Positions 1 to 63,110 of a DNA stretch of 64,000 nucleotides are shown here, piece by piece; the first letter of the stretch is position 1; each line of letters opens with the position of its first letter. Where the stretch lies: NCBI RefSeq assembly GCF_028641065.1, contig NC_073383.1:13764001-13828000 (forward strand). The letters are read 5' to 3'. Below the pieces are notes generated by a model. The model had not been told where the DNA came from. It did no database searches and worked only from the letters and a program-made list of their open reading frames with translations. The translations under genes were made by a program, and so were the position numbers. The DNA comes from Leucoraja erinacea. Taxonomy: Eukaryota.

Positions 1-157
1 CTTAGCTGAGGTCTCGAGTATGCGGGGACTACTCTCGAGCATGAAGGAGAGTTACAAAGACCTCCTAGGACCTCGTGTCGACCATGCTGCGAGTATGAGT
101 CGAGGGCAAACTCTTCTGTGGACTCGCGGATTAGGTCGCCGCAGTGGGACAGCCCCT
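1..157. mobile_element. Right end of a PIF/Harbinger-like MITE, truncated by the window start
   Basis: Ends ...gcagtgggacagcccct followed by TTA; same GTGGGACAG terminal core as the MITEs at 14585, 27312 and 61031. Confidence 0.65.
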
Positions 158-824: not shown

Positions 825-869
<45 letters not shown>

Positions 870-3049: not shown

Positions 3050-3313
3050 ACCTAGGCCACAGCTAATAATGGCCTGTTTTCTCTATCATCGTAACTTTTT
3101 TGCATATCTTTCATTCTGAATGAATATCTTTCAAAACGAATATCTTTCATTCATTTGTTCTACATCTCTCTACATCACCTTCCATATCACTCGGTTCCCT
3201 TTCCCCTGACTCTCAGTCTGAAGGAGGGTCTCGACCCAAAACGTCACCCATTCCTTTTCTCCAGAGATGCTGTCTGACCCGCTGAGTTACTCCAGCTTCT
3301 TGTGTCTAACTTC
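3050..3313 (+). mobile_element. Penelope-like element 3' terminal fragment with a degenerate hammerhead motif
   Basis: ctgaaggagggtctcgacccaaaacgtca followed by the shared PLE terminal block (gagatgctgtctgacccgctgagttactccagc); attataatg repeated on both flanks. Confidence 0.75.
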
Positions 3314-5268: not shown

Positions 5269-5417
5269 ATGTGTAGGAAGGAACTGCAGGTGCTTGTTTA
5301 AATCAAAGATAGACACAAACTGCTGGAGTAACTCAGCAGGATGGGCAGCATCTCGGAATGGGTGACGTTTTCGGGTCGAGATCCTTCTACAGACTGATGT
5401 CAGGGGAGTGGGCTTTG
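5269..5417 (-). mobile_element. Short PLE terminal insertion with 11-bp TSD
   Basis: tttaggattca at 5258-5268 and 5418-5428 flanks tgtgtaggaaggaactgcag...; lies about 70 nt from the HECW2 donor at 5498. Confidence 0.8.
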
Positions 5418-5498
5418 TTTAGGATTCAGGATTAAATGTTAGTTAGGTACAAAAGATGGCAGCAAACGACCATGTAATTAGATGCGAGTTTCCTTCAC

Positions 5499-6817: not shown

Positions 6818-6914
6818 AGTCTGAAGAAGGGTTTCGGCCGGAAACGTTGCCTATTTCCTTCGCTCCATAGATGCTGCTGCACCCGCTGAGTTTCTCCAGC
6901 ATTTTTGTGTACCT
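6818..6914 (+). mobile_element. Young PLE terminal-repeat fragment with a hammerhead-like motif
   Basis: cagtctgaagaagggtttcggccggaaacgttgcc...ttttgtgtacct, near-identical to 40279-40376. Confidence 0.8.
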
Positions 6915-12170: not shown

Positions 12171-12275
12171 TACATAATGTTTCACAGTTACAACGATCAC
12201 GAACACACCGTCAAAAAAGAAGTAGGAGCATTGGACTGACAGTAAAGATGTTCTTCAAGTCTAATAATACATTAC

Positions 12276-12418: not shown

Positions 12419-12534
12419 CTGTAAAACAAAAAATATATCATCGTAAACATATTTAGCATTTCAAGCATTAATTTATTCAGTCATTGCGTAGTCGAGAAGT
12501 ATATGTTCAATTTCCATACGACAGCAGGTTTTAC

Positions 12535-12704
12535 CTCTCCTTGCCAAATAGGGTTTGTTGTGTTTGCCACTATTGACGACCGCTTCTCTTGTCCGTGATG
12601 AGCAAAAGTGGGGAAAGTGCTCTTTTTCCCACGCTGAATGGCCATTTTTAGATATGGATCTGGGTTGAAAAACATTCCTTTCTTGAGTCCTACGGCTCGG
12701 ATAT
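12535..12704 (-). CDS. HECW2: HECW2 C2-domain exon, 170 bp ([57 protein letters not shown])
   Basis: Acceptor ccaaacag|AT, donor GAG|gtaaa, phase 1-0. Overlaps ORF 12481..12675. [15 protein letters not shown] is diagnostic. Confidence 0.97.
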
Positions 12705-12797
12705 CTGTTTGGAAAATTGAGAGTCAGTGTCAGATCACAGTAATAACATTTGACCCAGCAGTAGTCGCAGGGCATTGGGGCCTGTAACACTTCTTTA

Positions 12798-14810: not shown

Positions 14811-15044
14811 TGAGTCAGGATCACAAAACTGCTTATAACTGTTAGGTACATCTGAATAGAGTCACCATTGTAATGCACCAAAGATAGAAATGAGAATAGA
14901 GATCACACAAGGTTATTTATCACTCAACCATTGAGGAATCATGTACTGGTTCGGAGACAAGTATAGATCCATCCCTTCTCCTGGGTTTGCATTTACATAC
15001 CCACGTCACTCTCCAGGACAGTAGGGAGAAATCTCTCCCCAATG

Positions 15045-15290
15045 ATAGGCACCAAAGAGTAAGTCAGTGGGTCAGAGAGCATCTCTAGAGAATAGGAACA
15101 GGTGACGTTTCAAGTCGAAACCCTTCTTCAGACTGAGAATCAGAGGAAAGAGAGCCCCTGACTCCCCGTCTGAAGCAGGGTCTCGACCTGAAATGTCACC
15201 CATTCCTTTTCTCCAGAGATGCTGTCTGGCCCGCTGAGTTACCCCTACTTATTGTGCCTATCTTCGGTTTAAACCAGCTTCCTATGCAAT
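15045..15290. mobile_element. Fold-back PLE derivative with two opposed hammerhead-like motifs
   Basis: Minus-strand motif at 15104-15131 and plus-strand degenerate motif at 15170-15197 inside inverted terminal blocks. Confidence 0.75.
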
Positions 15291-17014
15291 CTCTCTCCAT
15301 TCCTGCTTTGTAAGAGAGGCTGTTTTAATGCCTCTGAGCCAGTGATCAACCCATCTAATTACGCAAATGTCTCATGTCATAGAAACATTTCTGCAACCAG
15401 AAGCTGCCAAGCCTCTATCAATAGCCTATCCTGGTCAGCCAGGAGCAATCCAAACATGCACCTTAAATGAAGGCTTTACTGACAATGTGGAGGCACATTC
15501 ATGACTTTCCTGCTGGATGAACGGTTGCAGATCTTAACTGTGTACATAATGTCCAGTAGAACAATCCCTTTGCCCAACAGGCTTGTGCTCAATCTCTGTC
15601 AAGTCACTGGTCCCCTCATCTCAACTAACCTTAAACTACACGCTCACTAACTCCACCTTTAACATGGTGCAGACGTGCTGGAATCTGTAAAGTGAAGCAC
15701 AGGATTTTGGTTCTTCCTTCTTAAGCCCACTTACCGTTAATCTACTGCTCTCCCATTCCTACTCCAACGGAACAAATATTAGAAAGGAAGAACTTAATAT
15801 GCCCTTAAACAGCGTATGCACGGGATGATAGACACAAAATGCTGGAATAACTCAGCGGGACAGGCAGCATCTTTGGAGAGAAGGAATGGGTGAAGTTTCG
15901 AGGTTGAGATCTTTCCTCAGACTGGGGATGGGTGGCGTTTCGGGTTGAGACCCTTCTTTAGACTGAGCAGTTTCATGTATCTCCTTATGCTGAATTGGAA
16001 GAGGGACAAACAATCACAGCTAGTCTGCAAGGCTGCTGTTTCAGCTTGCCCTGTTCTTCCCTTCTCTGGCAAGGAAAACCAGTGAGGATTTTCCTAAATG
16101 CTTCTGGGCTCTAATCTGTGCAGATATATCCAACTGTTTCCTTGAGTTTTGCTGCAAGCAGAAAAGTCGCCTTGAGTGTAAGTTAAAAGACACCTTGCAC
16201 AGTGCCCAGCAAATGCCAGCTTCTCTCTCAGTAAATGACCATGCATCATTCAGTTAGCTTATGCTATAATGTTTCCACATGCTCATACAGGGAATATGCC
16301 AGCTCAGCAGGATTTGTAGTCAATGGCCATCCCCAGGTAAGGAATGGGTTTCCTCTTGGCGGGTACCCAGAAGTCACTTTTGATCAAAGGTTGGGGGAAG
16401 GAAAAGTAGTGCTGGAGAGATTCAGATTCAGATTCAATTTTAATTGTCATTGTTTGTACAGTACAGAGACAACGAAATGCATTTAGCATCTCCCTTGCAG
16501 AGCGACATAGCAAACGATTTGAATTAAAAAAATAATAAGTGTCCGGAGGGGGGGGGTGGTGATTGGCAGTCACCGAGGTACGTTGTTGAGTAGAGTGACA
16601 GCCGCCGGAAAGAAGCTGTTCCTCGACCTGGGTGCAATTAAGAGGGCAAGCAGGATGTTGAACTTCTATTTAAATGCATCAGCACTGCATTGCGATGCGA
16701 TATCCCAATGTCCACGGAATTCCCAACAGCAGTGGAGGTCTCGACCCTGCAATCTACATTAACAGTTAGCTTGTGTTATACTTATAGGTCATACTTGTCG
16801 CAACCATCTAGTGTGCAACCATTGTGCCTGGAAACATGATCACAGGGGCAACCTGCAAGTATTGTCTTTCTGCTGACTGGATCACAGGCAACAAAGGCGT
16901 TTCACTGCACCTCGATGTACGTGACAATAAACTAAACTGAAAATGACTGAACTAAGAATAAAGCACCAGAGACTACGACAGCCCCCCACACCTCTACTTC
17001 TTCCGACCAACCTA

Positions 17015-21023: not shown

Positions 21024-21466
21024 GTAACTCAAGAAGGGTCTCGACCCGAAATGTCATCCATTCCTTCTCTCCAGAGATACTGCCTGACCCGCTGAGTTAC
21101 TCAGGCATTTTGTGTCTACCTTAACCTAACTCAATGGTTGTTGCAACTGCTGCATCTTCTGCAACAGCTACAGTGTCAGGGAAAAGGTGACAAAAAATGA
21201 TTTGATTAAGAATTTGATATATCCATCCAGGGCTTCTTTTTCCACAACAGTGGAAACGTATATATTATATTTAAACCGCTAATACTGTATTCAGTGCATG
21301 TGCGTGTGCATTTACTTTGCACGTGCGAAAAGGGAAAAGCTGACTAGTGTAAAAAAATGATAGTTGCTGTGCAATGCATGTAAATATTTCTAGTCTATAC
21401 TATTACCAGTTAAATGATCTTAATTAACAAATAGCAATTGTGCCTTACAAAAGGGCTGCATCTTAC

Positions 21467-21542
21467 CTGATAATGTGAATCTGACAAGTTTTCGATTGTT
21501 CTCACCATTCAATCCACCTTCCCCCAATTCATCTGCTCCGGC
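21467..21542 (-). CDS. HECW2: HECW2 internal coding exon, 76 bp (AGADELGEGGLNGENNRKLVRFTLS)
   Basis: Acceptor ttttttacag|GCC, donor CAG|gtaag, phase 0-1. RKLVxFTLS marks the start of the C2 domain. Confidence 0.93.
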
Positions 21543-21771: not shown

Positions 21772-21907
21772 CAAGGAGAGGCCATTAATTTGAAAGGCGT
21801 TTTGTTTTCATTTTGATGTTACAAACTTATGCCTAATTACTCTATTAACAGCCACCAATAATCTAAATAAAGCTTTGCAAATGATTCATAGTCAGATTCA
21901 TGTGATC

Positions 21908-22732
21908 TGTGGTAGTCTGGCGCGCTGACCTCGACCGGGCTGTGGCCAGGCGATAACTCTCAGACACCTCGTCCTACTTATCCTTAGACCATGACCCCAC
22001 AGACGAGCACCAGACCTTAATATGACACGCAATTTCTGATTTTATTACTTTCGGCTCTCTGCCCTCTAAAGCCTCCAAACTTATCGTTCCCCAGCCCCGC
22101 ACGGCCCGATTTTATCTTCTCCCCAAAATCCACAAACAGAACTGTCCTGGCAGACCCATTGTTTCTGCTTGTTCATGTCCCACTGAATTAATTTCCACAT
22201 ACCTCGACTCCATCTTATGCCCCCCTGGTCCAATCCCTCCCTACCTATGTCCAAGACACCTCACACACTCTTCGTTCTTCAATGACTTCCATTTTCCAGG
22301 CCCCCACTCCCTCATCTTTACCATGGACGTGCAGTCACTCTATAACTCCACCCCCCACCAGGAAGGTATTAAAGCCCTCCGTTTCTTCCTCGACCGCAGA
22401 ATCAGCCAATTTCCATCTACGAATACTCTTCTCCACCGAGCAGAGCTGTTCCTTACCCTCGACAACTTCTCCTTTGACTCCTCCCACTTCCTCCAAATCC
22501 ACGGCAGAGCTATGGGCACTCGCATGGGCCCCAGCTATCCCTGCCTCTTTGTAGGGTACGTCGAACAATCACTGTTCCAGGTGTACACTGGCCCTATCCC
22601 CAAACTCTACCTCCGCTACATTGACAACTGCATCGGTGCTGCCTCTTGCACCCATGCAGAACTCACTGACGTCATCAACTTCATGACTAATTTCCATCCG
22701 GCACTTAAATTCACATGGATCATCTCCGATAT
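21908..22732 (+). mobile_element. Penelope-like element, internal reverse transcriptase fragment
   Basis: FYLLPKIHKQNCPGRPIVS, then MDVQSLYNS, GRAMGTRMGPSY and YLRYIDN (ORF 22323..22874): PLE RT motifs with YIDD decayed to YIDN. Confidence 0.92.
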
Positions 22733-23999: not shown

Positions 24000-26514
24000 A
24001 TTGGGCATTAACTGGATCTGATGTGTTGTGCCTTTCTGAAAAGGAAATGGCTGGACAAGTGTAAATATTATTCGCTTTGGTTAAAATAACATAAAAATAG
24101 AATATATTTTCAATGGAGAACTACTGTTAAATGGTGATATGGGTTCCGATTTGCATGTGCAAATAAGTGGGAAGTAACTTCTTGAAGGCCTTTAATGCAA
24201 AGAGATTGAAGTCCAGATTAAGAAAGTCTGGCTACAATTGAACCGGGCTTTCGAGAAGCCATAACTGGAATTCCATGTATGTTCTCATCCACTTACAACA
24301 GGGAAGATATCCTTGCCCTAAATGCAATGCAACAAAGGCATGGAAGGAATCAAGTGAAGAGTGAGTTCTGTGAGAAGATCAAACTTGTAATCTCTTACGA
24401 TTTTAAGAATGAGCGGCAATCGTATTGAAACTATACAGATTCTGAATAAACTTGAAACGGTAGACATGACAGTCTCAAGGCGAAAAGTCAAATATTGTTA
24501 GCCCAGTGTCGGAGGTTTTATTTCTTAAAGAAGTGTGAATCTTCAGGATTGTCTACTTCTTAGAACTGTGGATCCTCAATCATTAAGCATAGTTAAGGGG
24601 TGCGATCAACAGATTTTCAAGTTGCGGAAACCAGGAATGTGGAGATGAAGATGAGAATAATGGTGGAGGCGGAGTGAACCAAAGGCCATGTGAACCAAGG
24701 CCATTATCTACATCGATCAGTTAGTGGTACATATCAATTAATTCAAAATTGATTATTTTAATCATGCAATATTGATCATAAGCCCATAAAATATGACCTT
24801 AAAAGTTGGACGAGGTTTTAGCCTTGCAAAGCAACAAAATTGTCTTTCCACAGTATCAGAAAACTAACAGAAATGCAGTAGCAAAGGAAATATTAAATCT
24901 TACTAGTATTAGTTTGCAGTGTAAATGTAGAATGGAAAGGGTGAAAGAATATAATTTCTGCATATTTTCTTGTTTAAACCCCAGGGAACGTTTAAAGCCA
25001 TCTAAACAAGTATAAGAAAGCCAGGATAAAGGAAATTGCATATTTAATATTTCAAAGCATGCTTCCTGTGTTATTAGGATGCAATAAAATCACACCCAGT
25101 AACTTCACTGCCAATTTTACTGAGTACTAAATGGTTATGTTCTATTTTCCTGTTTATAACATTACTTAATAGGCACTTTTTCCCCCCACAAAGTGAATCA
25201 GATTTTTTTTCCAGTTTGCCTTCAGTCCAAAAGAATTAAATGCAGTGGGCAGGTCTTTAGACCTTGGTGAAACAACAGAATAAACAGTAGGTAGTGCGAG
25301 TGTGCAGAGGAATGGGAGTGGAAGGACAAGGTTTAGTCACTAGTCTTATTGATGGCGAGGAATAAATTATAAAGAGGATTGCTTTCAGGCCTTGCAGGCT
25401 TCAAGTACAAAGGGAAAACCTTTTACAGTCCATGCACATTGTCTTTACTCAGGACATTGTTCATTATGCACTGGTCACCATACTCAAGATTCCCACCTAC
25501 CATTGCCATGCTAAACGGTAATAGCTGTTCCCTCTTACATGGGGTTATGGGGAGAAGGCAGGAGAATGCGGTGAGGAGGGAGAGATGAACGAGCCATGAG
25601 TGAATGGCAGAGTAGACTTGATGGGCAGAATGGCCTCATTCTACCTCTATTCCTTTTGACTTTATGACGTCGAATATCTGTGTGGCCAAAACGGGGAGCA
25701 AAATCTTTTTGTGGGTCTCAAGCCTCCATTTATTTTCCAATCAAATGTCACATCTCCTTCAGCTCAAGAGCAGCCAGCCAAACACGGGCAGGTATATTTC
25801 AATTACAACAAATGGCTTAGTGCTTCCACACGTTCCATTTAGTGTTACAACTGCCGCTACCATGCCAAGTGCAACTGTTGTCTGCAAATCATCTTGTGTC
25901 TTGTCTTGGGAGTTGCAGGGAAAAGCAGATGCAAACTTAAAATGACAGTATTTGCTGCATTAAAAAGGTGTTTTACAATGTTCATTTGTGAACTGTTCTA
26001 CCTTTTAAAAAAAAGTACTATACTGGCCTCTACATTTCCACTCCCAAAAGTCTAATGGAGATTTTTTTACTTGTTGAGAAAGAGGAGGCACAGCTTGAGC
26101 TTAAGGATCGCAGTATTATGCTAAGCACCATTAATTCCCCAGAGTGTACACAGACCACGTACCTTCCGCCTGAGCGTGACATTGCGTTTTGTTTATTGTC
26201 ACGTGTACCGAGGTACAGTGAAAATCTTATGTTACGTGCAAACCAGTCCACGAAAGACAATACATGATTATAATTAAACCATCCACGATGTACAGATATG
26301 TGATAAAGGAAATAACATGAATAACATTCAGAGCAAGATAAAATGAGTAAAGTCCGATCAAAGATAGTCCGAGGGTCTCCGTTGAGGTTGGTCGTAGTTC
26401 AGGACTGCTCTCGAGTTGTTGGTAGGATGGCTCAGTTGCCTGATCACAGCTGGGAAGAAACTATCTGTGATATAGAGCCAAAGCCCACTCAAAGAACAAC
26501 CAAGCGTTAACTGT

Positions 26515-26718
26515 TTAAGAAGGAACTGCAGATGCTGGAAAATCGAAGGTACACAAAAATGCTGGAGAAACTCAGCGGGTGCAGCAGCATCTATGGAGCG
26601 AAGGAAATAGGCAACGTTTCGGGCCAAAACCCTTGGGTTTCGGCCCAAAACGTTGCCTATTTCCTTCGCTCCATAGATGCTGCTGCACCCGCTGAGATTC
26701 TCCAGCATTCTTGTGTAC
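26515..26718. mobile_element. Fold-back (hairpin) PLE derivative with 15-bp TSD
   Basis: About 84-bp inverted arms (26548-26631 and 26636-26719) plus a one-sided tail; ccaag(c/a)gttaactgt at 26500-26514 and 26719-26733. Confidence 0.9.
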
Positions 26719-27311
26719 CCAAGAGTTAACTGTGCAAGTTGTAACTTCAATTAAAGACTGGCTTCAGCACAGAGACTGATACAGTTGGTGCCTGCAAACA
26801 ATCACGGCCACTTGGTTCAAGAGCAGTGAATATCAACCTCAATCACCAATTGGCAGTACAAAATACAATCAAGTGTGTCACAGTTTGCCCCAGTGAGTCA
26901 TGGCCAACAAAAAACATGTCAGGACAACACAAATTTAACAAAAGATAGACACAAAATGCTGGACTAGCTCAGCGGGACAGGTGGCATCTCTCGTGAGAAG
27001 GAATGGGTGACATTACGGGGGACCCTTCTTCAGACTGCCAAATTACAATTAATGCGCTCAATGGGGATTTGATTAAGGCATTTTTTAAAAGAAATTGAGA
27101 TTATCCGGTTAAAATGAGAATTGGTTCAGAATATACTGAAATAACTGGAGATTATAAGGGGGCATGATTGTTTCCTCGCCACTGGGATACTGCCTGTCCC
27201 GCTGAGTTACTCCAGCTTTTTGTGTCCTTCTTCGGTTTAAACCCATCTGCAGTTCCTTCCTACACAATGTTAACAAATGCAGGGTGTGCGTCAGTAAACA
27301 CGGCAATCTTA

Positions 27312-28599: not shown

Positions 28600-30208
28600 C
28601 GGAATTTTAGAAACTCATGTCAGTCTCAGTCACAGAGGCCGACGTCAGGAAATCCTTCAGAGGGGTGAATCCTCGAAAAGCACCTGGTCCTGATGGTATA
28701 CCCAGTCGTGTTCTAAAAACCTGAGCGGACCAACTGGCGGGAGTTTTTACGGACATTTTCAACCTCTCACATCTGAGGACTGAGGTCCCCACCTGCTTTA
28801 AAAGGGCATCAATTATACCGGTGCCCAAGAAGAGTAAGGTGACGTGCCTCAATGACTATCGGCCAGTGGCACTAACGCCGGTGGTGATGAAGTGCTTTGA
28901 GAGGCTGATCATGGAGCAAATCAACTCCTACCTCGCCAAAAACCTGGACCCACTGCAGTTCGCTTACCGCCACAACAGATCAATGGTGGATGCGATCTCG
29001 CTGGCCCTCCACTCCACACTGGACCACTTGGACAACAAAACTCATATGTCAGGCTGTTATTCATCAATTACAGCTCGGCATTCAACACAATCATCCCCTC
29101 CAAACAGGTTACCAAACTCGCAGAACTGGGTCTCTGCGCATCTGCAGCTGGATCCTCGACTTCCTCATCCACAGACCACAGTCTGTTCGTATTGGTGGAA
29201 ATGTGTCAGCCTCGATAACAATCAGCACGGGAGCACCTCAAGGCTGCGTGCTCAGCCCCCTGCTGTACTCACTCTATACCCATGACTGCGTAGCCAACCA
29301 CAGTGCGAACTCCATCATCAAGTTCGCTGACGACAACACTGTTGTGGAACGTATCACTGATGGGGATGAGTCAGAATATAGAAGGGAGATCGAGCAACTG
29401 TCCATATGGGCAATAACCTGGCCTTCAACACCAGCAAAACCAAGGAACTGATTGTGGACTTTGGAAGGAGTAGGAGGGGGACCCACAGCCCCATTTATAT
29501 CAACGGGTCGATGGTTGAAAGGGTCAAGAACTTCAAATTCCTGGGCGTGCACATCTCTGAAAATCTTTCCTGGTCCGAGAACACTGATGCAATTATTAAG
29601 AAAGCTCATCAGCCCCTCTACTTCCCGAGAAGATTACGGAGAGTTGGTTTGTCAAGGAAGACTCTCTCTAACTTCTACAGGTGCACAGTGGAGAGCATGC
29701 TGACCTGTTGCATCATGGCTTGGTTCGGCAATTTGAGCACCCTGGAGAGGAATATACTACAAAAAGTAGTAAACACTGCCCAGTCCATCATCGGCTCTGA
29801 CCTTCCTTCCATCGAGGGGATTTATCGCAGTCGCTGCCTCAAAAAGGCTGGCAGTATCATCAAAGACCCACACCATCCTGGCCACACACTCATCTCCCTA
29901 CTACCTTCAGGTAGAAGGTACAGGAGCCTGAAGACTGCAACAACCAGGTTCAGGAATAGCTACTTCCCCACAGCCATCAGGTTATTAAACCTGACTCGGA
30001 CAAAACTGATTATTAATAACCACTTTCTGTTATTTGCACTTTACCAGTTTATTTATTCATGTGTGTATATCTTTATATCATGGTATATGGACACATTTAT
30101 GTGTTTTGTAGTAAATGCCTACTATTTTCTATGTGCTTAAGCAAAGCAAGAATTTCATTGTCCTATACAGGGACACATGACAATAAACTCACTTGAACAC
30201 TTGAACTT
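28600..30208 (+). mobile_element. Rex1/Babar LINE, 5'-truncated, frameshifted RT
   Basis: [61 protein letters not shown] and SGRRYRS across ORFs 28821, 28990 and 29406; tail aataaactc(acttga)n. Confidence 0.93.
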
Positions 30209-30635
30209 GGGTGCCAGGAACAGTCTGGGGTGCAAGTGGATGGGGAATGGGTGGGTGGGGGTGACATTGTAAAGCAGCGTCTCACGATCAATGGTGATAA
30301 CTGCGTATTACAGGGAGAGCTCTTTTGCAAGGGCAGCAGAACATCAGCAGGCAGCAACATAAAATGGTGGCACAAACCAATAAACATTCAATGAATCTCA
30401 TGCATGAAGCTTGTACTCGTTTCTGACCATTACACTAACTAGTTCCCCAGGTGCACATCTACCTTCATCATAGGCTCAGGTTCTGCTCGAGTTCACATCT
30501 TAAAGCATTTACAAATGAATCTCACTTTTTAACACTTTTTGCCCAGAGAATTTTGAAAACATAAGCTGATAACAACATAACAACAGAGATGGGAGCACAG
30601 CTATTGCTGCCACAGGAGAACAACAGAGTGGACTC

Positions 30636-30856
30636 TGTATAGGAAGGAACTGCAGATGCTAGTTTATACCAAAGATAGCCACAAAATGCTGGAGCAGCTC
30701 AACGGGTCAGGCTGCATCTCTGGAGAAAAGGAATTGTGTCTGAAGAAGGGTTCCAACTAGAACATCGCCTATTCCTTTTCTCCGGAGATGCTGTCTCACC
30801 CGAAACGTCACCTATTCCATCGCTCCATAGATGCTGCCTGACCCACTGAGTTACTT
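30636..30856. mobile_element. Fold-back PLE derivative
   Basis: tgtataggaaggaactgcag start and inverted terminal blocks. Confidence 0.7.
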
Positions 30857-31779: not shown

Positions 31780-31874
31780 CATAGTAGCGGAGTTTTTTAC
31801 TGTAATACATGGGGTGGTGGCTCGCAGTGCTCCGCTTACACCATGGTAGTATTTAAAACTGATTTTAGTTTCAG
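31780..31874 (-). CDS. HECW2: HECW2 internal coding exon, 95 bp ([32 protein letters not shown])
   Basis: Not in the ORF track; translated by hand. Acceptor ctcctcag|CT, donor ATG|gtgag, phase 1-0. Contains the [16 protein letters not shown] motif of HECW1/2. Confidence 0.96.
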
Positions 31875-33249
31875 CTGAGGAGCAAAGAGAGAGAGATAAC
31901 TGGTTAAATTCTCAACGATTTCAGAAGAATCACTTTAGTTTAAAAAAAAAGTTTTTGTTCTGATTTACATATTTCGCCAAATATTCACTAGAAATTGCCA
32001 TTGCTTAAAAAGAAACAAATAGCAGGAGCTGCTTGGCACGACTGCTAAAACTTGACAAGATCCTGTTTCCCTCCGAGAGAGTTGACCCATTAGATTCCTT
32101 TGATCAACTCTTACATCCAACATTGTGCTTAGTGATGGTCATTGCTGGCATCTATTTTACACCTTGCAGATGGGGCCAAGCTCAGCCACGGGCAGCTTGT
32201 GACGGTGGTCAGGTGCGTGGAGTGTGTCGATGATGACAAAAAAAGAGAGCTTTCACCGATACATGATGCAGAAATTGGCCCGCATTTTTGCAAATGTGAC
32301 TTCATGAGGTAAATGGCCATGGGAGTTTAATGTAAAGTATTAAAAGTTTATTTGATGCAACATATACAGTAGACAATTATAATATAACTACAACAGGACT
32401 TAGACAGGTATTTTCCATTTGTAGCTGGTGGAACTGAGTGGGCCACACCACTTTTGTAGAGGGAATAGACAATAGGTGTAGGAGTAGACCATACGGCCCT
32501 TCGAGCTTAGCACCGCCATTCACTGTGATCATGGCTGATCATCCACAATCAGTACCCCGGATTTTCTTTTGTTCTTCTTCAATCGATCTTTTCACTTTCT
32601 ACTTCCTTTCTTTCTTGTTTTCTTTTTCTCCTCTTTTTTCATTTTCATAATTTGTGTTATAAGATTAAATATGTAGCTGTACAATAATTGTATAATTTTA
32701 AGATGCCAAATGTTTTATCTCTGTACAATTGCTTCTAATTCAAAAAATAAAAAATAAATAATAAAATAAAATATTTGAACCATTCTTCACACCGATTGAA
32801 ATGGGGGAAGAAAGCTGGAAAAGAAAGATGGGAGTAGGATAACGTCTGGCAAGTGATAAATGGATATAAGTGATACAAGTGATAAATGGATACAAGTGAG
32901 GGGTGGGGGGTTGGGGGCAAGGGATTTGATTGCAGATGGATGGAGTGACAAAAGCTAAGGGTGAACAGGAGACAAAAGGGTGTCAGATAATGATAGAAGA
33001 CAAGTGAAATGTTAAACTGGAGAGGATATTCCAGGTGAGAAAGGCATTCATGTGTACTTCTTCAAACCTTGTCCACAGTATATGGTCAATCGGACTGTCC
33101 ATTCCCTCTACAAATGCTCTTGATGTGACCTTGACAATTGTAAGACCGAGCATAGACTAGACAACCATTTCACCAAACACTTGCTCTCTGTCTGCCATGG
33201 CATGCTGGATCTCCCAGTTGTTAACCATTTTAACTCCTCTTCCCATTCC

Positions 33250-39770: not shown

Positions 39771-39876
39771 TGTGGTTGGAGACAGTAGGAATGGTTGGAG
39801 AACTGAGAAAGGGGAGCGGATGGAGAGAGAGGGGTAAAGGAAGGGCTACTTGAAGTTAGAGAAGTCAATGTTCACA

Positions 39877-40376
39877 TCTATTGCGTCCGCTGCTCTAGAT
39901 GTCAGCAGATCTATATCGGTGAGACCAAGCGGAGGTTGGGCGATCGTTTCGCCGAACACCTCCGCTCGGTCCGCAATAACCAAGCTGACCTCCCGGTGGC
40001 TCAGCACTTCAACTCCCCCTCCCACTCCGTCTCCGACCTCTCTGTCCTGGGTCTCCTCCATGGCCACAGCGAGCAGCACCGGAAATTGGAGGAACAGCAC
40101 CTCATATTCCGTTTGGGGAGTCTGCATCCTGGGGGCATGAACATCGAATTCTCCCAATTTTGTTAGTCCTTGCTGTCTCCTCCCCTTCCTCAGTCCCCCT
40201 GCTGTCTCCTCCCATCCCCCAGCCTTCGGGCTCCTCCTCCTTTTTCCTTTCTTGTCCCCGCCCACCCCCGCCCCCGATCAGTCTGAAGAAGGGTTTCGGC
40301 CGGAAACGTTGCCTATTTCCTTTGCTCCATAGATGCTGCTGCACCCGCTGAGTTTCTCCAGCTTTTTTGTGTACCT
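39877..40376 (+). mobile_element. Young Penelope-like element 3' fragment (GIY-YIG and terminal repeat) nested in an older antisense PLE
   Basis: IYIGETKRRLGDRFAEHLRS...VAQHFN...RKLEEQHLIFRLGSLHPGGMN; 12-bp TSD tcaatgttcaca at 39865-39876 and 40377-40388. Confidence 0.92.
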
Positions 40377-40554
40377 TCAATGTTCACACCGCTGGGGTAT
40401 AAGCTGCCCAAGTGAAATACAAATTTAATTATATTCTGAGAAACGCCATGGGATATTTTACAGCATTAAACATTTTTGTAACAAAGCGAGTTATGTTGTT
40501 GCCTTTCACCAATTTGTTTCAATATCACAAAGTAAAACAATAATTTATCCTTAC

Positions 40555-40662
40555 CCTCCATAAAGTACGGGCCAGGGTCAATTCGCCACACAATCTGCCC
40601 GTTCTGGGTTCCATTTACACCCCGATTTTTGGAGTCCCAGACATTTCCTGGAGAGATCTCAT
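40555..40662 (-). CDS. HECW2: HECW2 internal coding exon, 108 bp, HECW-N domain ([36 protein letters not shown])
   Basis: Acceptor ttttaaag|AT, donor G|gtaag, phase 1-1. Peptide closely matches recalled human HECW2 [36 protein letters not shown]. Confidence 0.96.
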
Positions 40663-41387
40663 CTTTAAAAGAGAAAATAAAGAGCATATATATATATATA
40701 TGGTAACATAGAATCCATTTATTTCTATCCAGTGCCAAGAAAACGGGCAGAAAACTGAAATACGATTTAAAAGGAGCCATCTAAATATCAGGAACATTTT
40801 AACCATTAAGACAGCTTTTGTGATTGAATTTTTTTTAAACCTTCAACCAAATGAGATTTTGACAAATGTACAGTATGCACTTCAGTACAGTTTGTAAGTA
40901 ATAATAATTAATGCACTGAATATTCATGAGGCAAGATAATGCATTTTTGTTAAAGCAAAATTATTAAATATACATGCTGGTTATAATTTGAAAAATGTTG
41001 ACAATGAGAAAGCTGCGATATATTGTGTTACAAGTCCATGCATAATCTTTTGAATATCAACAGTGCACAGTGTTGAAAGCACAGTAGTAGAATCGGAATG
41101 TCATCAATATAAGTAAGTAAAACCAAGGAATAAGCTAGAAAATCATCGTAGATTTTACAGCACAACCAAGACATTGGGCAGGATTATGCTGTTAACAACC
41201 CTCTCTCAGTCGAATATCCCCAGCACGGAGACTAATCACAAGATTAGAAACACAAGACTTCCCAACCAAGCACGATACACTCACCTCCATCACAGCAACA
41301 TTTTACTGAGGGAGAGAGCAAACACCAAGGATGTTCCCAAAGGCACCTTAAAAAGGTAACACCACAACCAACTTGATGGAACTTTTG

Positions 41388-41768
41388 ACAGACAAAGAAA
41401 GGTGGAATAACTCAGTGGGTCAGACAGCATCTTTGGAGAAAATTAATAGGTGACGTTTCGGGTCGAGACCCTTCTTCAGAGTCAGGGGAAACGGTAATGA
41501 GAGATATAAACGGTGATGTAGAGAGATATCGAACAAATGAATGATGTGCAGAAAAATAATGATGATGATAAAGGAAACAGGCCATTGTTAGCTGTGTGCT
41601 ATGTGAAAACGGGCACAGACAATAAAACTCAACAGGACAACTTTGAAGCTGGTACCACTTGGGTGGGGGAGGGATGGAGAGAGAGGGGATGCAAGGGTTA
41701 CTTGAAGTTAGAGAAGTCAATGTTCATCCGCTGGGTTGTAAGCTGCTCAAGCAAAATATGAGGTGCCA
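41388..41768 (-). mobile_element. PLE 3' fragment
   Basis: GIY-YIG C-terminal remnant plus terminal repeat. Confidence 0.85.
41452..41479 (-). ncRNA. Minimal hammerhead ribozyme motif (PLE type), sense to the HECW2 pre-mRNA
   Basis: CUGAAGA-A-GGGUC(UC)GACCC-GAAAC-GUC: intact core and stem II, palindromic ACGU in place of stem III, GUC cleavage triplet. Stem I is weak. Confidence 0.6.
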
Positions 41769-42134
41769 GGAACCTTTGCCTGGTGACCAACCACAATGTA
41801 GAAGGAGCATCTGGGGACTGGACTGAGAACCTTGTTCCTTCATCAAAACCTCAACTAATATCTCCTCCTAAACTACCCATGACCACCTGTCAAGCACCTC
41901 CTGCAGTACCAGTAGATAGCACATTGGTCCCATCCTCCACCTTGAATGGCACAAATTGGAGTAGATGCAACTTATCCATGGCCCAACCAAGAGGAATAGC
42001 AGAACTAGATTGAGTTGCAATTCTCATCTTAAACTCTTATGTGAAAGCATGAAGATTGCTTTTAATTACATTATTTCTTTAACTGGTTTGGAGAAAGAGT
42101 AACCAGGACTGATGTACCAATCTCTCTCCATCCA

Positions 42135-43400
42135 CTTGAGTTGAGTTTAGTATATTATCACATGAACCGAGGTACAGTGAAAAGCTTTTGTTGCATGCCA
42201 ACCAGTCAATAGAAGGACAATACATAATTACAATCAAGCTGTCCATTGTACATAGATACATGATAAACAGAATATCGTGAATAACATTTAGTGCAAGATA
42301 AAGCCAGTAAAGTTCAAGCAAAGATAGTCCAAGGGTCTCCAATGAGGTAGATAGTTGTTCAGGGCTCACTAGTTGGTGGTAGGATAGTTCAGTTGCCTGA
42401 TAACAGCTGAGAAGAAACTGTCCCTGAATATGGAGGCGTGCGTTATGCCACTTCTATTCCTTTAGCCTGATGGGGAAGGGGAGAATTGAGAGTGGCCAGG
42501 GTACGATTATGTTGGGGACTGTTCCCAGAGACTGGTGTTGCGCACTTTCAAGCTTCTGTATCTTCAGTCCTACGGGTGTGGGAGAAGGCAAAATGACCAG
42601 GATGAGACAAGCCTTTGATTTTGTTGGCTTTACTGAGGGAGCATGAAGTAAAGATGGAGTCAATGGCAGGAAAATCTAGTCTGTTTGATGGACCGGGTTA
42701 CACCCACAGTCTTGGGCAGACCTGTTCTCAAACCAAGCTGTGATGCAACACAACAAGGTGCTTTCTATGATGCATCTGTAGAAGTTTGTACACATGCGCC
42801 ACAAATTATGCAGACATGCTGAATTTCTTCAGTCTCCTGAGGAAGATGAGGTGTCCCTTCTAGGCTGTCACTTCATTGGGGCTGGTCCACTACAGATCGG
42901 TGGTAATATTGACTCCAAGGAACTTGAAGCTCGCAACCATTTTGTCACTGTTAATGCAGATTGGTTTTATGTACTCCTGAAGTTGACAACAAGCTCCTTT
43001 GTCTTAATGACGTTGAGAGAGAGGTTGTTGCCCTGACAACATGTTACTAAGTTCTTTGCTTCCTTCCTGTACTCCATCTCGTCATTGTTCCTAATCCAAG
43101 CCCACTGTGGTGGTGTCATCTGCAAACTTGTAGATGAAATTGGAGCAGAAGTTGGCCATACTGTACATTCCTGTAAAGGGAGTATAATAAGGGACTGAGA
43201 ATGCATCCCTGTGGTACACCAGTATTGAGAGTTATTGTGGAGGATTTGTTGCCACCCATCCTCACTGATTGTAGTCTATGGATCAGTGAGTCAAGGATCC
43301 TGTGAGTTTGGAGATAGGTTTGGATGAAATGTGTTGAAAGGCGGAGCTACAATCAATAAATAGGAATCTAATGTAGGTGTCCTTGTTGTCTAAGTGCCCC
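42135..43400 (-). mobile_element. Rex1/Babar LINE fragments (two adjacent pieces)
   Basis: 3' tail at 42135-42490; RT remnant NNDEMEYRKEAKNLVTCCQGNNLSLNVIKTKELVVNFR in ORF 42967..43206. Confidence 0.85.
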
Positions 43401-43671: not shown

Positions 43672-44098
43672 AGATAGAGGCAAAAAGCTGGAGTAACTCA
43701 GCGTGTCAGACAGCATCTCCAGAGAAAAGGAATAGGTGATGTAGATTAGTGGCTCATGCTATGAGTCATGCATTTGTAGTTGCGCCCACGAGCTTGTTAG
43801 CATCGCGGTCTGCTGCATTCCGTTAGTCTTAAAGTGAACTCTTAAGTGAGAAGTTGTATTGCTTGTAACCATTAAACTCTATATAACCTGGTGTGAGGCC
43901 ACTGTTATTATAAGGACCACAAATCAACAGGTGATGTTTCAGGTCGAGACCTTTCCCCTGACTCTCAGTCTGAAGAAGGGTCTCGACCCGAAATTTCATC
44001 TACTCTTTTTCTTCAGAGATGCTGTCTGTCCTGCTGAGTTATTCCTGCTTTTTGTGTCTATCTTCAGTTTAGACCAGTATGTGCAGTTCCTTCCTACA
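43672..44098. mobile_element. Fold-back PLE derivative with a perfect 15-bp TSD
   Basis: caatggaataaagga at 43657-43671 and 44099-44113; hammerhead-like motif at 43970-43997. Confidence 0.88.
43740..43929 (+). mobile_element. 190-bp solo LTR nested in the PLE derivative
   Basis: TGTAG...CAACA termini, 5-bp TSD GGTGA, internal ATTAAA. Removing it restores aataggtgatgtttcaggtcgagacc. Confidence 0.75.
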
Positions 44099-46333: not shown

Positions 46334-46523
46334 ATTGTGTAGGAAGGAACTGCAGATGCTGGTTTAAACCAAAGATGGACACACAGAAAGCTGGGGTAAC
46401 TCAGCGGGACGGACAGCATCGCTGGAGAAAAAGAATAGGTGACGTTTCGGGTCGCAACCCAAATGTCACCTATTCCTTTTCTCCAGAGATGCTGTCTGAC
46501 CTGCTGAGTACTCCAAATGTTAG
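46334..46523. mobile_element. Fold-back PLE derivative with a 14-bp TSD
   Basis: tgcctctccaaaga at 46320-46333 and 46524-46537; pivot at ggtgacgtttcgggtcg|caacccaaatgtcacc. Confidence 0.88.
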
Positions 46524-46624
46524 TGCCTCTCCAAAGAGTGCTGCTTTGCCTGTTATTTATGCTTCCTTAAAGCACTCCCTAATAAGAGTCCTTAAGTGAC
46601 CTATCCAAATTAAGTAATTTGTAT

Positions 46625-47902: not shown

Positions 47903-48357
47903 GTGTAAGAAGGAACTGCAGATGCTGGTTTATACTGAAGATAGACCCAAAATGCTGGAGTAACTCAGCGGGTCAGGCAGCATCTCCGGAGGAAAGGAAT
48001 AGATGCTGTTTCAATTCGGAGCCCTTCTTCAGACTAAAAGATAGCAGTGTGTAAGGGGGGGGGGGGGGGGGACTGGAGGCAAGACAAGGCCAGAACAAAA
48101 CAGGGCCAGCAACAAATGACCTCAGGAAAGATGGAGTCCATAATGGCCCATTGTTGGCTGGGAAAGATGTGCTAACAACAGGGATAAAAGGATGAGAACA
48201 GTGGAACTACAAGGACAACTAGGGTGGAGAGGGAGGAAGAGAAGGGGTGGGGGGGGGGGGGGAGAAATGCAGGAGTTACTTGAAATTAGAGAAATCAACG
48301 TTTATACTGCTGGGTTGTAATCTGACCATGCAAAATATGAGAAATATGAATTTAATT
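47903..48357 (-). mobile_element. PLE 3' fragment with a 15-bp TSD
   Basis: cacat(a/g)cattgaaat at 47888-47902 and 48358-48372. Confidence 0.82.
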
Positions 48358-54049: not shown

Positions 54050-55178
54050 CCTCTAGATTTACAATATATGCATCGTCCACGTATAATAAGAACCCGCATC
54101 CGTGGGAGGTTTACCCTCCACTGCAGCCTTCCCACAGCTCTGTAGATTCCCTTCATCAGAAGGATGAGCAAGGTGTATGGAATTGGGAGGGCAAGTTGGG
54201 GAACATCAGGATCCAGGGCATCGGAAATGTCCTCATTCTTCAGGGAACGGGGGTTCCCCTCCCCTACTATAGATGAGGTTCTCACCAGGGTCTCTTCAAT
54301 ACCCCGTAACACTGCTCTCTCTCCCCATCCCCCCCACTCGTAACAAGGGCAGAGTCCCCTTAGTCCTCACCTTTCACCCCACTGGCCGTCACATACAACA
54401 AATAGTCCTCCGTCATTTTCGCCACCAACAACGTGACCCCACCACTCGCCACATCTTCCCATCTCCCCCGCTGTCTGCTTTCCGCAAATACCGCTCCCTC
54501 CGTAACTCCCTGGTCAATTCTTCCCTTCCCTCCCGCACCACCCCCTCCCCGGGCACTTTCCCTTGCAACCGCAAGAGATGCTACACTTGTCGCTTTACCT
54601 CCCCCCTCGACTCCATTCAAGGACCCAAGCAGTCGTTCCAGGTGCGACAGAGGTTCACCTGCATCTCTTCCAACCTCATCTATTGCATCCGCTGCTCTAG
54701 ATGTTAGCTGATCTACATCGGTGAGAGATCTTTTCGCCGAACACATCAGCTCGGTCCACATTAACCAACCTGATCTCCCGGTGGCTCAGCACTTCAACTC
54801 CCCCTCCCATTCCAAATCCGGCCTTTCTGTCCTGGGCCTCCTCCATGGCCAGAGTGAGCACCACCGGAAATTGGAGGAGCAGCACCTCATATTCCGCTTG
54901 GGCAGTCTGCACCCTAGCGGCATAAACATTGAATTCTCCAATTTCCGGTGGCCCATGCTGTCTCAACCCCTTCTCAGCTCTCCCTCAGCCCTTGGGCTCC
55001 TTCTCTTCCTTTCTCTTTTCTTCTCCCCCCCCCCCCACCTTACATCAGTCTGAAGAAGGGTTTTGGCCCGAAACGTTGCCCATTTCCTTCGCTCCACAGA
55101 TGCTGCTGCACCCGCTGAGTTTCTCCAGCATTTTTGTCTACCTTCGATTTTCCAGCATCTGCAGTTCCTTCTTAAACA
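54050..55178 (+). mobile_element. Penelope-like element, 5'-truncated (RT C-terminus, GIY-YIG endonuclease, terminal repeat and tail)
   Basis: RVPLVLTFHP, PGTFPCNRKRCYTC, FTCISSNLIYCIRCSRC, VAQHFN and KLEEQHLIFRLG; ends gttccttcttaaaca. The 5' boundary is approximate. Confidence 0.93.
55050..55077 (+). ncRNA. Minimal hammerhead ribozyme motif (PLE type)
   Basis: CUGAAGA-A-GGGU(UUUG)GCCC-GAAAC-GUU with palindromic AACGUU. Confidence 0.55.
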
Positions 55179-55192
55179 TGGAGAGAGAATCA

Positions 55193-55889: not shown

Positions 55890-56585
55890 TAAAGATAGAT
55901 ACAAAAAGCTGGAGTAACTCAGCGGGACAGGCAGCATCTCTGGAGAGAATAAGGGTCTCGACCCAAAATGTCACACATTCCTTCTCTCCAGAGATGCTGC
56001 CTGTCCCGCTGCTGTTCCGGGAGGCAGAGAGAGCCAATGCGATGACGCTGATGTCAAAAGCCTTGAACTGCCTGCTTACTACTCCCATATGTCTCCTCCA
56101 TTGTCAGAGTGAGGCTAAACACAAATTAGAGGAATAGCACCTCATATTTTGCTTGGGCAGCTTACAGCCCAGTGGTACAAATATTGATTTCTCTAACATC
56201 AAGCAACCCCGGCATTCCCTCTCTCTCTATCCCTCCCCCACCCAAGTTACACTAGCTTCTCGTTTTCACCCAACAAACAGCTAGCAATGGCCTGTTTCCT
56301 TTATCATCGCTCCATTTTTGCATATCTTTCATTCATTGTTCTTTATCTCTCTACCTCATTGTTTATATCTCTCATTTCCCTTATCCCCAAGCAGTCTGAA
56401 GAAGGGCCTCAACCTGAAACACCACCCATTCCTTCTCTCCAGAGATGCTGCCTGTCCCGCTGAGTTACTCCAGCTTTTTGTGTCTAACTTCAGCATGATC
56501 AAGGTCTGAAGAAAGATCCAGAGACAAAATGTGATCTGCCCACACCCTCACAGATGCTGGCGGTCCCGCTGAGTACTTCCAGCAT
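55890..56585 (+). mobile_element. PLE cluster: 5'-inverted segment, GIY-YIG remnant and terminal repeats
   Basis: LLHCQSEAKHKLEE; degenerate hammerhead at 56396. Confidence 0.8.
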
Positions 56586-57839: not shown

Positions 57840-60720
57840 TTTTAAGCACCTCTCACCACTAACTCCTTAGGCAGTGTGATCCAGATTTCATCCACACTCT
57901 GGGTGAAAAAATGTTTCCACCAACCCTCTCTAAATCTCCCTACCCTTAACAAATGCTCTCTGGTTATAGGCATCTCTGCCACTGGAAAAAGTTTTGCAAT
58001 TTACCCTCTCCATGCCCTTTCAAATTTTATACACCACATTTAGGTCCCCTTCAACTTACCCCATTCATAAATGAAACAACCCCAACCTATCCAGCATCTC
58101 CCCATAACCGTAATATTATATTCCAGGGTAAATCCTGATTAATCTCCTCTGTCTAATCATCCATCCTATTGTTGGGCAACCAGAACTGTACATGTTACTT
58201 CTGTTGTCGTTTAACTAATATTTTATACACGTGCACTATAACCTCACTCCTCTTACATTAGCTGTATCCCATGTACTTCCTTATCTACCTTATCTAGCCG
58301 TGCTGCTGCCTTCAGGGATCTTTACACAAAGACTTGAAGTTGTAGAAATGTATAAAATTATAAAAGGACTGGACAAGCAAGATGCAGGAAAATGTTCCCA
58401 ATGATGGGGGAGTCCAGAACCAGGGGCCACAGTCGAAGAATAAAGGGGAGGCCATTTAAAACTGAGATGTGAAAAAATCTTTTTCACCCAGAGAGTTGTG
58501 AATTTGTGGAATTCTCTGCCACAGGCCAAGTCACTGGATGAATTTAGAAGAGGGTTAAATCGAGCGCTAGCGGAATCAAAGGATATGGGGAGAAGGCAGG
58601 CACAGGTTACTGATTGTGGATGATCAGCCATGAATGGCGGTGTAGGCTCAAAGTGCCAAATGGCCTCCTCCTGCACTTATTTTTTGTTTCTATAACCCTC
58701 TGTTCCTCAGTAGTCCTGCGATCCTACCAATCTGTACGTACATCCTAGCCTTATTAGTTCTTTCAAACTCTTACATTCATCACAATTAAATTCCATCGTT
58801 TCTCTACGTATCTTACCAACTAATCTACTCTCCTCACGATCACCGACATTAAATGCCATTTTCAAGTTTTATTCATTTGCTTCTTGCCTGCCACATGCTG
58901 TTATCATTATGATATACGATGAACAGCAAGGATTCCAACACCAAACACTGTGGTACACCAGTCACAGACTTAAAAATCGCAAATACAGACCACAAACATC
59001 ACCCTTTGCCTCCATCGCCAAGCCAGTTTCCGATCGAATTTGCCAAATTCCCTTGATTCCAAGGACTCTTACCTTTTGAACCAGTTTCCCATAGGACCTA
59101 CCAAAGTCCATATGTCCATATCACGGACACTACTCTCCACAGCATTCACAGACATTTCCTCAAAAAATTCAAAATAGTCACACAGAATCTCAATGCTGAC
59201 TACACATGATCAATCCCTGCCCTCCAAATGCAAACTAACCTGAGGGTTTAAAAAAATAATTTATCTACCTATGGTTGGATTTATTGGCCTGTAACTAACC
59301 GGATTATCCCTGTTGCCTTTCTTGAATGAAAGAACCACGTTTACTGTCCAGTCATCTGACACCTCTTCCATAGCAAAGAATATATGAATATATCCCAGCA
59401 CCTCCTTCCCTGTTTCTAAAACAGTAGCCCTGGATACATCTTATCAGGCCCTGGGAATTAACTCAGCAGGACAGGCAACATTTCTGGAGAGAAGGAATGG
59501 GTAACATTTCGGGCCGAGACCCTTCTTCTCTCCAGAGATGCTGCCTGTCCCACCGAGTTACTCCAGCTTTTTGTGCCTATCCAAGCCGACTAAGATATCT
59601 AATACCTCCTTTTAAATAGAAATTTGCTCCGGAACTCCACTGTTTCCTTCCATGAATTCCCCAATGATCAAGCCTTTCCAACATAAATACAAATGGGGAT
59701 TATTTAAACCTCCTTCTGCTCGATGCACAGAAACCCCCTTTATTTCTAATGGGCCATATTCTCATTCGGGTTACCCCCTTGCCCTTTATATAGTTGTTGC
59801 CAAGGTCGCCAGGACTCAACACAGTACTTACCTTTCATCATGATGGGAACACATTGAACATGGACTTTCACGGTTTAATTGTTGAATGACTCCCACTAGT
59901 CGTACAGTAGATATTCCCAGTCCACTTTTGTTAAATCCTGCCCTACCACATTACAATTAGCTCTCCCCCAACCCAGTACTTTAATTTCCAGTCTATTCTT
60001 ATGCAACAACCTTAAAACTTAAGATGGACACAGATTGTTGGAGTAACTCAGCGGGTCAGGCAGCATCTCCGGAGAAAAAGGATAGGCCTGAAAACTTTAT
60101 TTTATCTCTGTCTGCTTCGTTGTCATCTTTTCCTAGCTAACAATGATCTATTCTACATTTTCATTTATACAAATCTCCTTTTAAGTCTCATTTTCACACT
60201 TTACCCTTCCTTATCTCTGTGTCTATCTCTCCCGACTCTCAGTCTGAAGAATACCCAAAACAATACCCGCTCCTTCTATCCAGAGATGCTGCCTGTCCTG
60301 CTGAGTTACTCTAGGATTTTGTGTCTATCTATGGCCTTAAAACTTAGTTGTGGTCAGTCCAAAATGCTCTTCCACTGACTGATTAGATCACATACCGTCC
60401 ATTCTCAAATGGGACATAACGCCTCAAAAAGCGCTCTCTGGATGGTCTTTCAAAATGGTGCACACCTCTAAGGCTACACACACAAATTAATCATTGGGGT
60501 GGCTGAAATTTCCTTTGTCTATTATTTTTAACCGTTCTTTGTGATTTGTCTACACATCTGACCCTCAATCCCCCTCTGAATGTTTGGAGGTCTCTCGTAC
60601 AACCCCTGCAAAGTGACCATTCCAGTTCTCTTTCTGGGTTGGACCCATATGGCCTCACTTAATTTTAAGTTTCTATTCACCCATTCCCTCGCAAAGGCTT
60701 CTGCGCACCCAGCTGGAGAC
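57840..60720 (-). mobile_element. Long, highly decayed CR1 LINE with younger nested CR1 (58333-58692, plus) and PLE hairpins (59458-59582, 60020-60332)
   Basis: CR1 RT and endonuclease remnants (EAIWV...TLQGLYERPPN in ORF 60528..60731; tcaggccctggg, the reverse complement of PGPD). Confidence 0.7.
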
Positions 60721-62265: not shown

Positions 62266-63110
62266 CTGTGTTTCTATAATATCCAATACAATATCCTATA
62301 ATATCTATCTCTTTTTAAATGGATGCAGTGGCTGAGCCACCCAAGGATTCCAGGCCAGTGAATTCTAAAAATTCACCTCCCTCTGTGTGAAGTAGTTTCT
62401 CCTCATCTGGGTTTTAAATGGCCCACACCTTATTCTGAGATTACGACTGCCGTTTCTCGACTCGTCAGCTAGTGGAAACAACTCCTTTTATTATTCAGAC
62501 CTCTATGTTAATCAATGTGATTTGTACAACATTTAAAAAAATGTCCTAATGGGGATCTCTCTCTTATCCTTCACTCATCCGTAGAGCATAGAAACCACTG
62601 ATTTAAAAAGTGATTCTCAAAAATGTCCATATTGATATGTTTGGGTGCTAATTAGAATCTCTACACGAACAGTCAGACACTCGTGTATCGTAAGCAGCTA
62701 ATCCCCAACACGGCACAAAAACAATGCAACTGACTGCAATGCCAGTAGTGGCATCAGAAGCCAATTGAAATGCAGGAAAGGGTTGAGCTGAAACATGACA
62801 TACTTTCAAAGAATTACAAGTTTTAATCAGAACAACTGGAGACAGTCCAGTGCAATAAATCAGTCTTTTTGTGCCTTCCTTCCCCAAAGGAATATATTTC
62901 TATCATTGGCACAAATATATATTACTTTCACATTCTAAAGAAACATCCTTTGTTCTAAATATTTAAGCATTTTGATTAAATTAACCAAAGTTCCCACGTG
63001 ATATTTAACTTGCACTTCCTGTTAGCAGAAAAAATGACCATTATTTTACAACACGAGAGCGACAAATCTGTCTCATTCCACCACAAAGTAATGGCCAGAT
63101 TGAATTGTTT

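Follow-up and report, generated by a model that had tools for sequence, protein, structure and literature searches.

The window analysed here, a stretch of 64,000 nucleotides from Leucoraja erinacea, is enclosed whole by the HECW2 gene, which spans C7:13,656,389-13,876,141 on the minus strand. Eight HECW2 exon stretches were mapped in the window, all on the minus strand: a large exon at 781-2262, which is 96% identical to a skate HECW2 and, over 802-2262, covers amino acids 329-810 of the homologue; an exon at 40529-40666, directly downstream of the hammerhead copy at 41452; and other exons at 31780-31875, 21468-21542, 12535-12708, 12275-12421, 5500-5598 and 420-521. Minus-strand copies of the hammerhead repeat described below thus lie within the HECW2 pre-mRNA, as the preliminary description had proposed. 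The poly-alanine run of the large exon (781-900, minus strand) exceeds that of the closest homologue by about six residues. A broken reverse transcriptase of LINE type at 28725-30140 (plus strand) has no relation to the Penelope copies; its pair of Pfam domains, RVT_1 and PF09004, suggests a Rex/Babar-like element.

By profile search, the window holds 45 copies of the repeat, which take up 6.9% of its length; 22 lie on the plus strand, 23 on the minus strand, and 23 of the 45 belong to head-to-head inverted pairs. When each site was re-read, the motif or a decayed form of it was present at all 14 positions previously named, a list that is nevertheless incomplete against the 45 profile copies. 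Among 16 window copies scored, the core is unchanged only at 41452 and 55050, and of seven scored copies on the minus strand only the former has the whole core. This copy (41452..41479, minus) is a minimal hammerhead with a full core, a 4-bp stem II and a palindrome, with a predicted cut between 41452 and 41451; its helix I is 1 bp, shortened by local loss immediately upstream. It is borne by a Penelope 3' fragment (41370..41766, minus) that consists of the end of the endonuclease region, a pyrimidine-rich spacer, the hammerhead and a tail. The hammerhead at 55050..55077 (plus) is intact, of young type and antisense to HECW2, and belongs to a Penelope 3' end (54212..55179, plus) with a broken linker and GIY-YIG region, the spacer, the hammerhead and a long tail. 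A third copy, at 15104..15131 (minus), had been grouped with these two as near-intact. That label is too generous for 15104, where C11.1 is changed to U, so that the conserved G10.1-C11.1 pair becomes a wobble. The 15104 copy is sense to HECW2 and lies within a predicted long duplex with its inverted, antisense partner at 15170 (plus), which precedes it on the HECW2 pre-mRNA; the head-to-head pair (15034..15289) has a predicted fold of -168.6 kcal/mol, with a stem II probability of 0.00.

Other copies range from young to decayed. On the plus strand, a young Penelope 3' end (39876..40389; 97% to the intact protein) has its hammerhead at 40283 with G at 11.1, and a young stub at 6821..6848, also with G at 11.1, begins just before the core. 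Decayed copies lie at 3218..3245 (A9 and G12 changed), at 21028..21055 (a stub beginning at C3, with G5 and 15.2 changed), at 30740..30767 (within a nested inverted cluster, 30635-30855) and at 56396..56423 (closing a longer 3' fragment that begins at about 56087), and the copy at 43970..43997 has kept the core and lost the palindrome. The three minus-strand copies located approximately before have their C3 positions at 5392, 15961 and 59530: a decayed sense copy at 5365..5392, with A6 changed and an extra base after GAAA; another at 15934..15961, with G5 and U16.1 changed, followed by a second decayed tandem copy with C3 at 15920; and a fold-back copy at 59503..59530 without C3 and U4. A decayed sense copy at 48005..48032 (minus) was absent from the earlier list. 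Two fold-back pairs are joined inside the motif itself, a young one at 26511..26735, joined inside the hammerhead with C3-A6 absent from both arms, and one at 46335..46539, joined inside stem II. A CUGACGA...GAAA string at 62453-62468 (minus) has no pairing stem II and was treated as chance.

For comparison, copies were collected in six genes totalling 1.224 Mb (HECW2, HECW1, two neurexin-like and two CSMD-like genes). In this set the profile gave 551 matches against 0 on the reversed sequence, and a structure-only descriptor gave 44 matches against 0 in each of five shuffles, which excludes chance for the motif. No hammerhead was among the Rfam matches at E<=1, where only microRNA and sRNA models of hairpin type appeared, each short of its cut-off. 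In one of the CSMD-like genes (C4:74,153,444-74,249,968), Sushi-domain exon matches occur in pairs of equal score about 71-76 kb apart, reflecting either a local duplication or an assembly artefact.

The preliminary description had assigned the motif to the minimal hammerheads that carry an additional base behind A9 and in which a palindrome replaces stem III, and comparison with the published class, including its fish examples, supports this assignment. The core (CUGANGA / GAAA / UH) is invariant in the consensuses of seven subfamilies, which were grouped by their spacers alone; an apparent 'CAGA' subfamily was discarded as likely fold-back junctions. The core also varies less than the sequence downstream: none of 11 core positions differs across subfamilies versus 18 of 60 downstream (p=0.055). 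Mean identity at non-CpG core positions in 137 older copies is 93% versus 87% downstream (p=0.04), a gap that arises partly because subfamily differences sit in the downstream columns. Stem II has 4 bp and is opened by G10.1-C11.1, and the extra A after A9 is found in 96% of the 137 older copies. The palindrome CG at 15.2/16.2 is present in six of the seven subfamily consensuses and decays in the copies at the CpG rate. Compensation in stem II was seen in one distant copy only (L104, C3 at 2229, plus strand). This single copy is a short insertion in another repeat, with the same core, a compensated stem II and an unrelated tail, and it probably represents a second, distant Penelope family.

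Helix I is the weakest part of the structure. Across 68 strict matches it has 2 bp in 41, 0-1 bp in 20 and 3-4 bp in 7, its first pair is a weak U-A or U-G, and its length is at the lower end of the published examples; the earlier caveat that stem I is only 1-2 bp in these copies is supported, with 1 bp at 41452. Two-base-pair helices are listed for fly, mosquito and Oikopleura elements in a supplementary alignment of PMC4209133. Published minimal hammerhead monomers did not cleave and dimers cleaved weakly, even designed ones, and the motif of an anole element is described as cleaving only once the element's protein was added (PMC11167929). In the skate repeat, a pyrimidine run 7-13 nt past the cut site (L109:1034-1075) is predicted to pair with the purines that open stem II, at a median probability of 0.46 in an RNA starting at -3; this predicted pairing is a possible off-state of the monomer.

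The proposal that the copies are the terminal repeat of a Penelope-like element was supported by the position of the motif, downstream of RT/GIY-YIG frames and on the same strand. Starting from a Penelope reverse-transcriptase fragment in the window (21906..22730, plus; 68% to the intact protein), we reached long frames elsewhere in the genome, and in four of four examined the motif lies about 120 nt past the frame end. The element frame is 1127 aa long, with a reverse transcriptase followed by a C-terminal GIY-YIG (RVT_1, E=3e-4, and GIY-YIG, E=0.012, both under the Pfam cut-offs); a C-X4-C-X2-C linker was read in all four long frames, and upstream of two of the four elements lies a truncated copy of the element's own 3' end, in inverted orientation. 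A PDB sequence search gave only two matches, at chance level. Young tandem units are ~99% identical and run in the order stop, spacer, hammerhead, tail, next start. The motif of intact tandem elements lies about 120 nt after the RT/GIY-YIG stop and about 165 nt before the next start, within the pLTR. As read from its sequence, this is the layout described for EN+ Penelope-like elements, and it is Neptune-like. Copies number 757 in 1.624 Mb, or about one million genome-wide by extrapolation from this non-random sample, and inverted pairs contain 218 of the 551 profile copies in the six genes.

Both the motif class and the type of element are already known. The minimal type I hammerheads (min-HHR) in the pLTRs of metazoan PLEs (Cervera and De la Pena 2014, PMC4209133) have in common with the skate motif the CUGANGA core, GAAA and UH, the extra base before stem II, G10.1-C11.1 and the two-base palindrome, as well as thousands of dispersed single copies and opposite-strand pairs, and fish examples in that work carry the same CUGAAGAA...CGUC as the skate. 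The two differ in helix I, which in the skate (where stem II is 4 bp) has 2 bp with a weak first pair versus 3-5 in most examples of that study, and in the number of strict matches, ~90,000 by extrapolation in the skate versus 4,000-9,000 in coelacanth and frog, counted with a different descriptor. In one supplementary file of that paper no cartilaginous fish name was found. By eye, the core of many metazoan PLE hammerheads in its supplement is also preceded, at a distance of a few bases, by a U-rich stretch and a YAG, resembling the Drosophila intron end. The EN+ PLEs of Neptune/Nematis type (Craig et al. 2021, PMC8557442) share with the skate element the RT, a CX2-5CxxC linker, the C-terminal GIY-YIG, partial tandems, an inverted 5'-truncated copy and a 30-40 bp tail.

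In the anole Poseidon element PAc (Frangieh et al. 2024, PMC11167929) the hammerhead lies near the ORF start, as in the skate, two internal initiation sites give the tail, much like the two 3' end clusters of the skate repeat, uncut RNA is the template and, again as in the skate, no RNA-seq ends were found at the cut site. Unlike PAc, the skate element has a Neptune-type cysteine linker, a start codon about 165 nt after C3 and a pile of 5' ends at the front edge of the motif, a feature not described for PAc in the portions of that paper available to us. Non-LTR retrozymes (Li et al. 2026, bioRxiv 10.64898/2026.07.22.740005) are likewise non-coding and PLE-derived with a type I hammerhead; they form head-to-tail arrays of units, each with an intact motif, whereas the skate copies are mostly solo or head-to-head stubs, a same-strand neighbour within 500 nt being found for 42 of 293 motif-covering copies, 9 of these 42 intact. 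That study sampled one cartilaginous fish and compared introns with intergenic regions; the word 'orientation' is absent from its main text. The Drosophila virilis Penelope (Schostak et al. 2008, PMC2377424) has an internal promoter and a transcription start that precede the hammerhead in the pLTR; from this start it is 46 nt to a 75-nt intron ending at helix I, compared with a putative start 2-3 nt before C3 in the skate. The role of the hammerhead in Penelope-like elements is described as unclear in the literature we consulted. A literature search that placed most subscription journals outside its scope found no report of Penelope hammerhead stubs in skates, of a front-edge pile, of strong-stop template switching in Penelope-like elements or of sense-depleted intronic hammerheads.

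Most copies of the skate repeat have their 5' end immediately before the core; target duplications are frequent among them, as are fold-backs. The 5' ends of 695 of the 757 copies could be scored, and of 347 copies reaching C3, 179 start at -8..0, with a peak at -3, the A of TCAGT, a sequence just before C3 that is as invariant as the core in the subfamily consensuses. The start rate at -8..0 is 0.079 per nt versus 0.0043 upstream and 0.0046 downstream (~17x background), and the pile is present in both sequence types (112/211 and 20/44). At the cut site there is no excess of 5' ends (14 observed versus 13.9 expected at +27..29 in the larger sample); a candidate cleavage fossil at +28, suggested by 9 ends versus ~4 in a first sample, was abandoned when the larger sample gave 8 versus 4.6 (p=0.10). 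The 3' ends cluster at two tail points past the cut site, at about +62 to +70 and at +101 to +103. The upstream flank of solo copies contains duplications of at least 7 nt in 19 of 57 cases versus 3.8% in shuffles, and open frames are not in excess (31/55 vs 37/57); together these indicate that this flank is target DNA. In a later duplication survey only the solo class was used, the 'sense' class mixing upstream sequence with fold-backs, and of the 26 duplications in that survey some are tail-internal matches. At the junction, an extra G is the first base that no longer matches in 18 of 40 non-inverted copies ending at -3/-2 versus 33 of 128 internal truncations (p=0.03), a modest excess that was tested after being noticed. 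Such a G at the junction would fit a base copied from the RNA cap, for which there is precedent, as the edge sequence would fit the initiator consensus.

Long copies behave differently at the edge. Among 70 loci taken at the ORF N-terminus, 26 reach the motif: 5 of them have their start at the edge, one (L122) has it exactly at the cut site, and the other 20 continue into a tandem unit; edge starts are rarer in long than in short copies (p about 0.003, computed with 344 in place of 347). That 20 of 26 long copies pass the edge suggests that long copies mostly use another template or jump. Three ORF-bearing copies (L130, L104 and L108) start at +132, +134 and +87 from C3, near the two tail ends, as if exactly one template turn had been copied.

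The front edge could be read in ways other than as the start of the element's RNA. Reverse transcription might stop or fold back at a near-palindrome straddling C3, a reading that we hold to be a minority possibility, albeit the most serious of the alternatives: the sequence flanking C3 is complementary to itself and, in some dimer folds, forms pairs across the two strands, antisense sequence of the element adjoins 62 of 135 edge copies, and truncation is also elevated across +1..+26 (0.014-0.026 per nt). However, solo copies with target duplications end there too, the G enrichment is confined to the edge and most long copies read past the same sequence. It is very unlikely that the edge is instead a 3' splice site, with pyrimidine tract and CAG, and the stubs copies of spliced transcripts. 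The skate spacer is indeed rich in pyrimidines and closes with a CAG that one base separates from C3, poly(A) RNA shows an accumulation of loose read ends at -3 and -2, and the Drosophila Penelope intron is reported to end at helix I. We nonetheless rejected a splice-acceptor origin on the target duplications in the upstream flanks and the open-frame counts given above; in addition, 4 of the 18 cases open to this check have flanks that carry on an interrupted repeat, and among 15 joints listed of 60 no GT..AG joint crosses the spacer.

A further alternative concerns the motif rather than the edge, namely that it is no longer a working ribozyme in the skate lineage and is conserved as a promoter or protein-binding signal. 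The 2-bp helix I in 41 of 68 strict matches with its U-A or U-G first pair, the rarity of stem II in predicted folds, the invariance of TCAGT, equal to that of the core, and the internal promoter of Drosophila Penelope, with a downstream element that is described as having the same ACGT core, would all fit. We nevertheless consider it doubtful: all 11 core positions are invariant across subfamilies, the distant L104 copy keeps the core despite a compensated stem II and unrelated flanks, and the published 2-bp helices of fly, mosquito and Oikopleura elements and the protein-assisted cleavage of the anole motif (PMC11167929) speak against it.

If the A of TCAGT is set as +1, the second half of the hammerhead falls at +18 to +33 (L109:1028-1075 and subfamily consensuses). 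This is the zone of downstream core-promoter elements, whose consensuses the hammerhead half partially matches. The ribozyme may double as an internal promoter.

The preliminary description had further suggested that the minus-strand copies pair through the palindrome and cleave HECW2 introns, and that intact motifs might be depleted on sense strands. No such depletion was found: in the six genes, where the strands of the four neurexin-like and CSMD-like genes were deduced from Pfam exon matches, intact motifs number 28 sense versus 23 antisense (95% interval of the sense fraction 0.40-0.69, compatible with a small bias), all copies 284 versus 267, and intact copies with a helix I of at least 2 bp 16 versus 17, while the core mismatch rate is 0.071 sense versus 0.065 antisense (p=0.91). 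Host-domesticated intronic hammerheads of the HH9/HH10 type show a sense-strand bias, complete stems and conservation at the orthologous site. The skate copies show no strand bias and neutral decay in the six genes.

That sense copies should pair via the palindrome and cleave introns of HECW2 at a rate of any consequence is, on these data, the least probable of the readings and highly improbable in itself. In its favour, the core at 41452 is intact, and RNA bearing the young motif is abundant (read depth 1,400-2,350), so that partners in trans exist. In HECW2 alone, moreover, a 2-bp helix I is kept in 0 of 4 strict sense versus 4 of 5 antisense copies (p=0.048, post hoc), and tandem retrozymes have been reported to be depleted from Xenopus introns. 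Against it, and besides the absence of sense depletion, helix I is kept in 16 of 19 sense versus 13 of 16 antisense copies in the other five genes, and the four strict sense copies in the whole of HECW2 are at least 28 kb apart, with a helix I of 0-1 bp. For the duplex formed through the palindrome, the predicted energy at 37 C is only -3 to -6 kcal/mol, and competing hairpins are predicted: that at 41452 would capture C3, U4 and the 5' strand of stem II, leaving a stem II probability of 0.01. A dimer-ready state reaches 10% in none of 60 intact copies in a 60-nt context (predicted median 5e-6, and 2e-5 for the 41452 copy), these being equilibrium predictions that ignore co-transcriptional folding and proteins. 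In RNA reads of the young family, neither starts nor ends accumulate at the cut site, a weak test since such libraries detect those ends poorly, and at 40400-42400 no reads fall on the unique intron flanks, the depth over the motif coming from other copies. The inactivity of published monomers and the weakness of dimers point the same way. We infer that the copies in HECW2 are inactive; judging from sequence and folding models, the stubs likely decay as passengers on both strands without cutting host RNA.

Altogether, we consider it probable that the stubs are retro-copies, equally frequent on both strands and likely non-cutting passengers in host genes, derived from an RNA that would start just before the core and be read through uncut. 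On this account, transcription of the element likely begins within the conserved TCAGT that directly precedes C3, at its A or G, a position that we draw from DNA junctions only. Reverse transcriptase likely starts internally at the tail, as in the anole element, and would read through the uncut hammerhead to the RNA end; the sharp edge, the lack of a cut-site pile and the extra G together suggest that this end is a capped RNA start. The resulting product of 95-135 nt would be inserted by itself, in folded-back form, or lengthened following a template jump. As for the ribozyme, it probably persists to serve the cycle of the element itself, and its folding and cutting would depend on the element's protein or on a tandem partner. 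A bolder extension, which we put forward tentatively and think unlikely as it stands, is that Penelope RNA begins at an initiator 2-3 nt before the core and ends at the cut of the next hammerhead. The resulting 31-nt core redundancy would then allow a strong-stop cDNA to transfer from the 5' end to the 3' end in the manner of LTR elements, and the stubs, roughly one million, would be jumps that failed.

Self-cutting of host pre-mRNA by dispersed transposon ribozymes would, if true, constitute a new layer of gene control; the present tests argue against it. The skate stubs nevertheless form a very large natural record of Penelope insertion ends. Their sharp edge, together with the extra G and the absence of a cut-site pile, amounts to a precise prediction on the start of the element's RNA and on strand transfer. 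If true, the strand-transfer reading would account for a helix I of two bases and assign the hammerhead a definite function in the construction of pseudo-LTRs.
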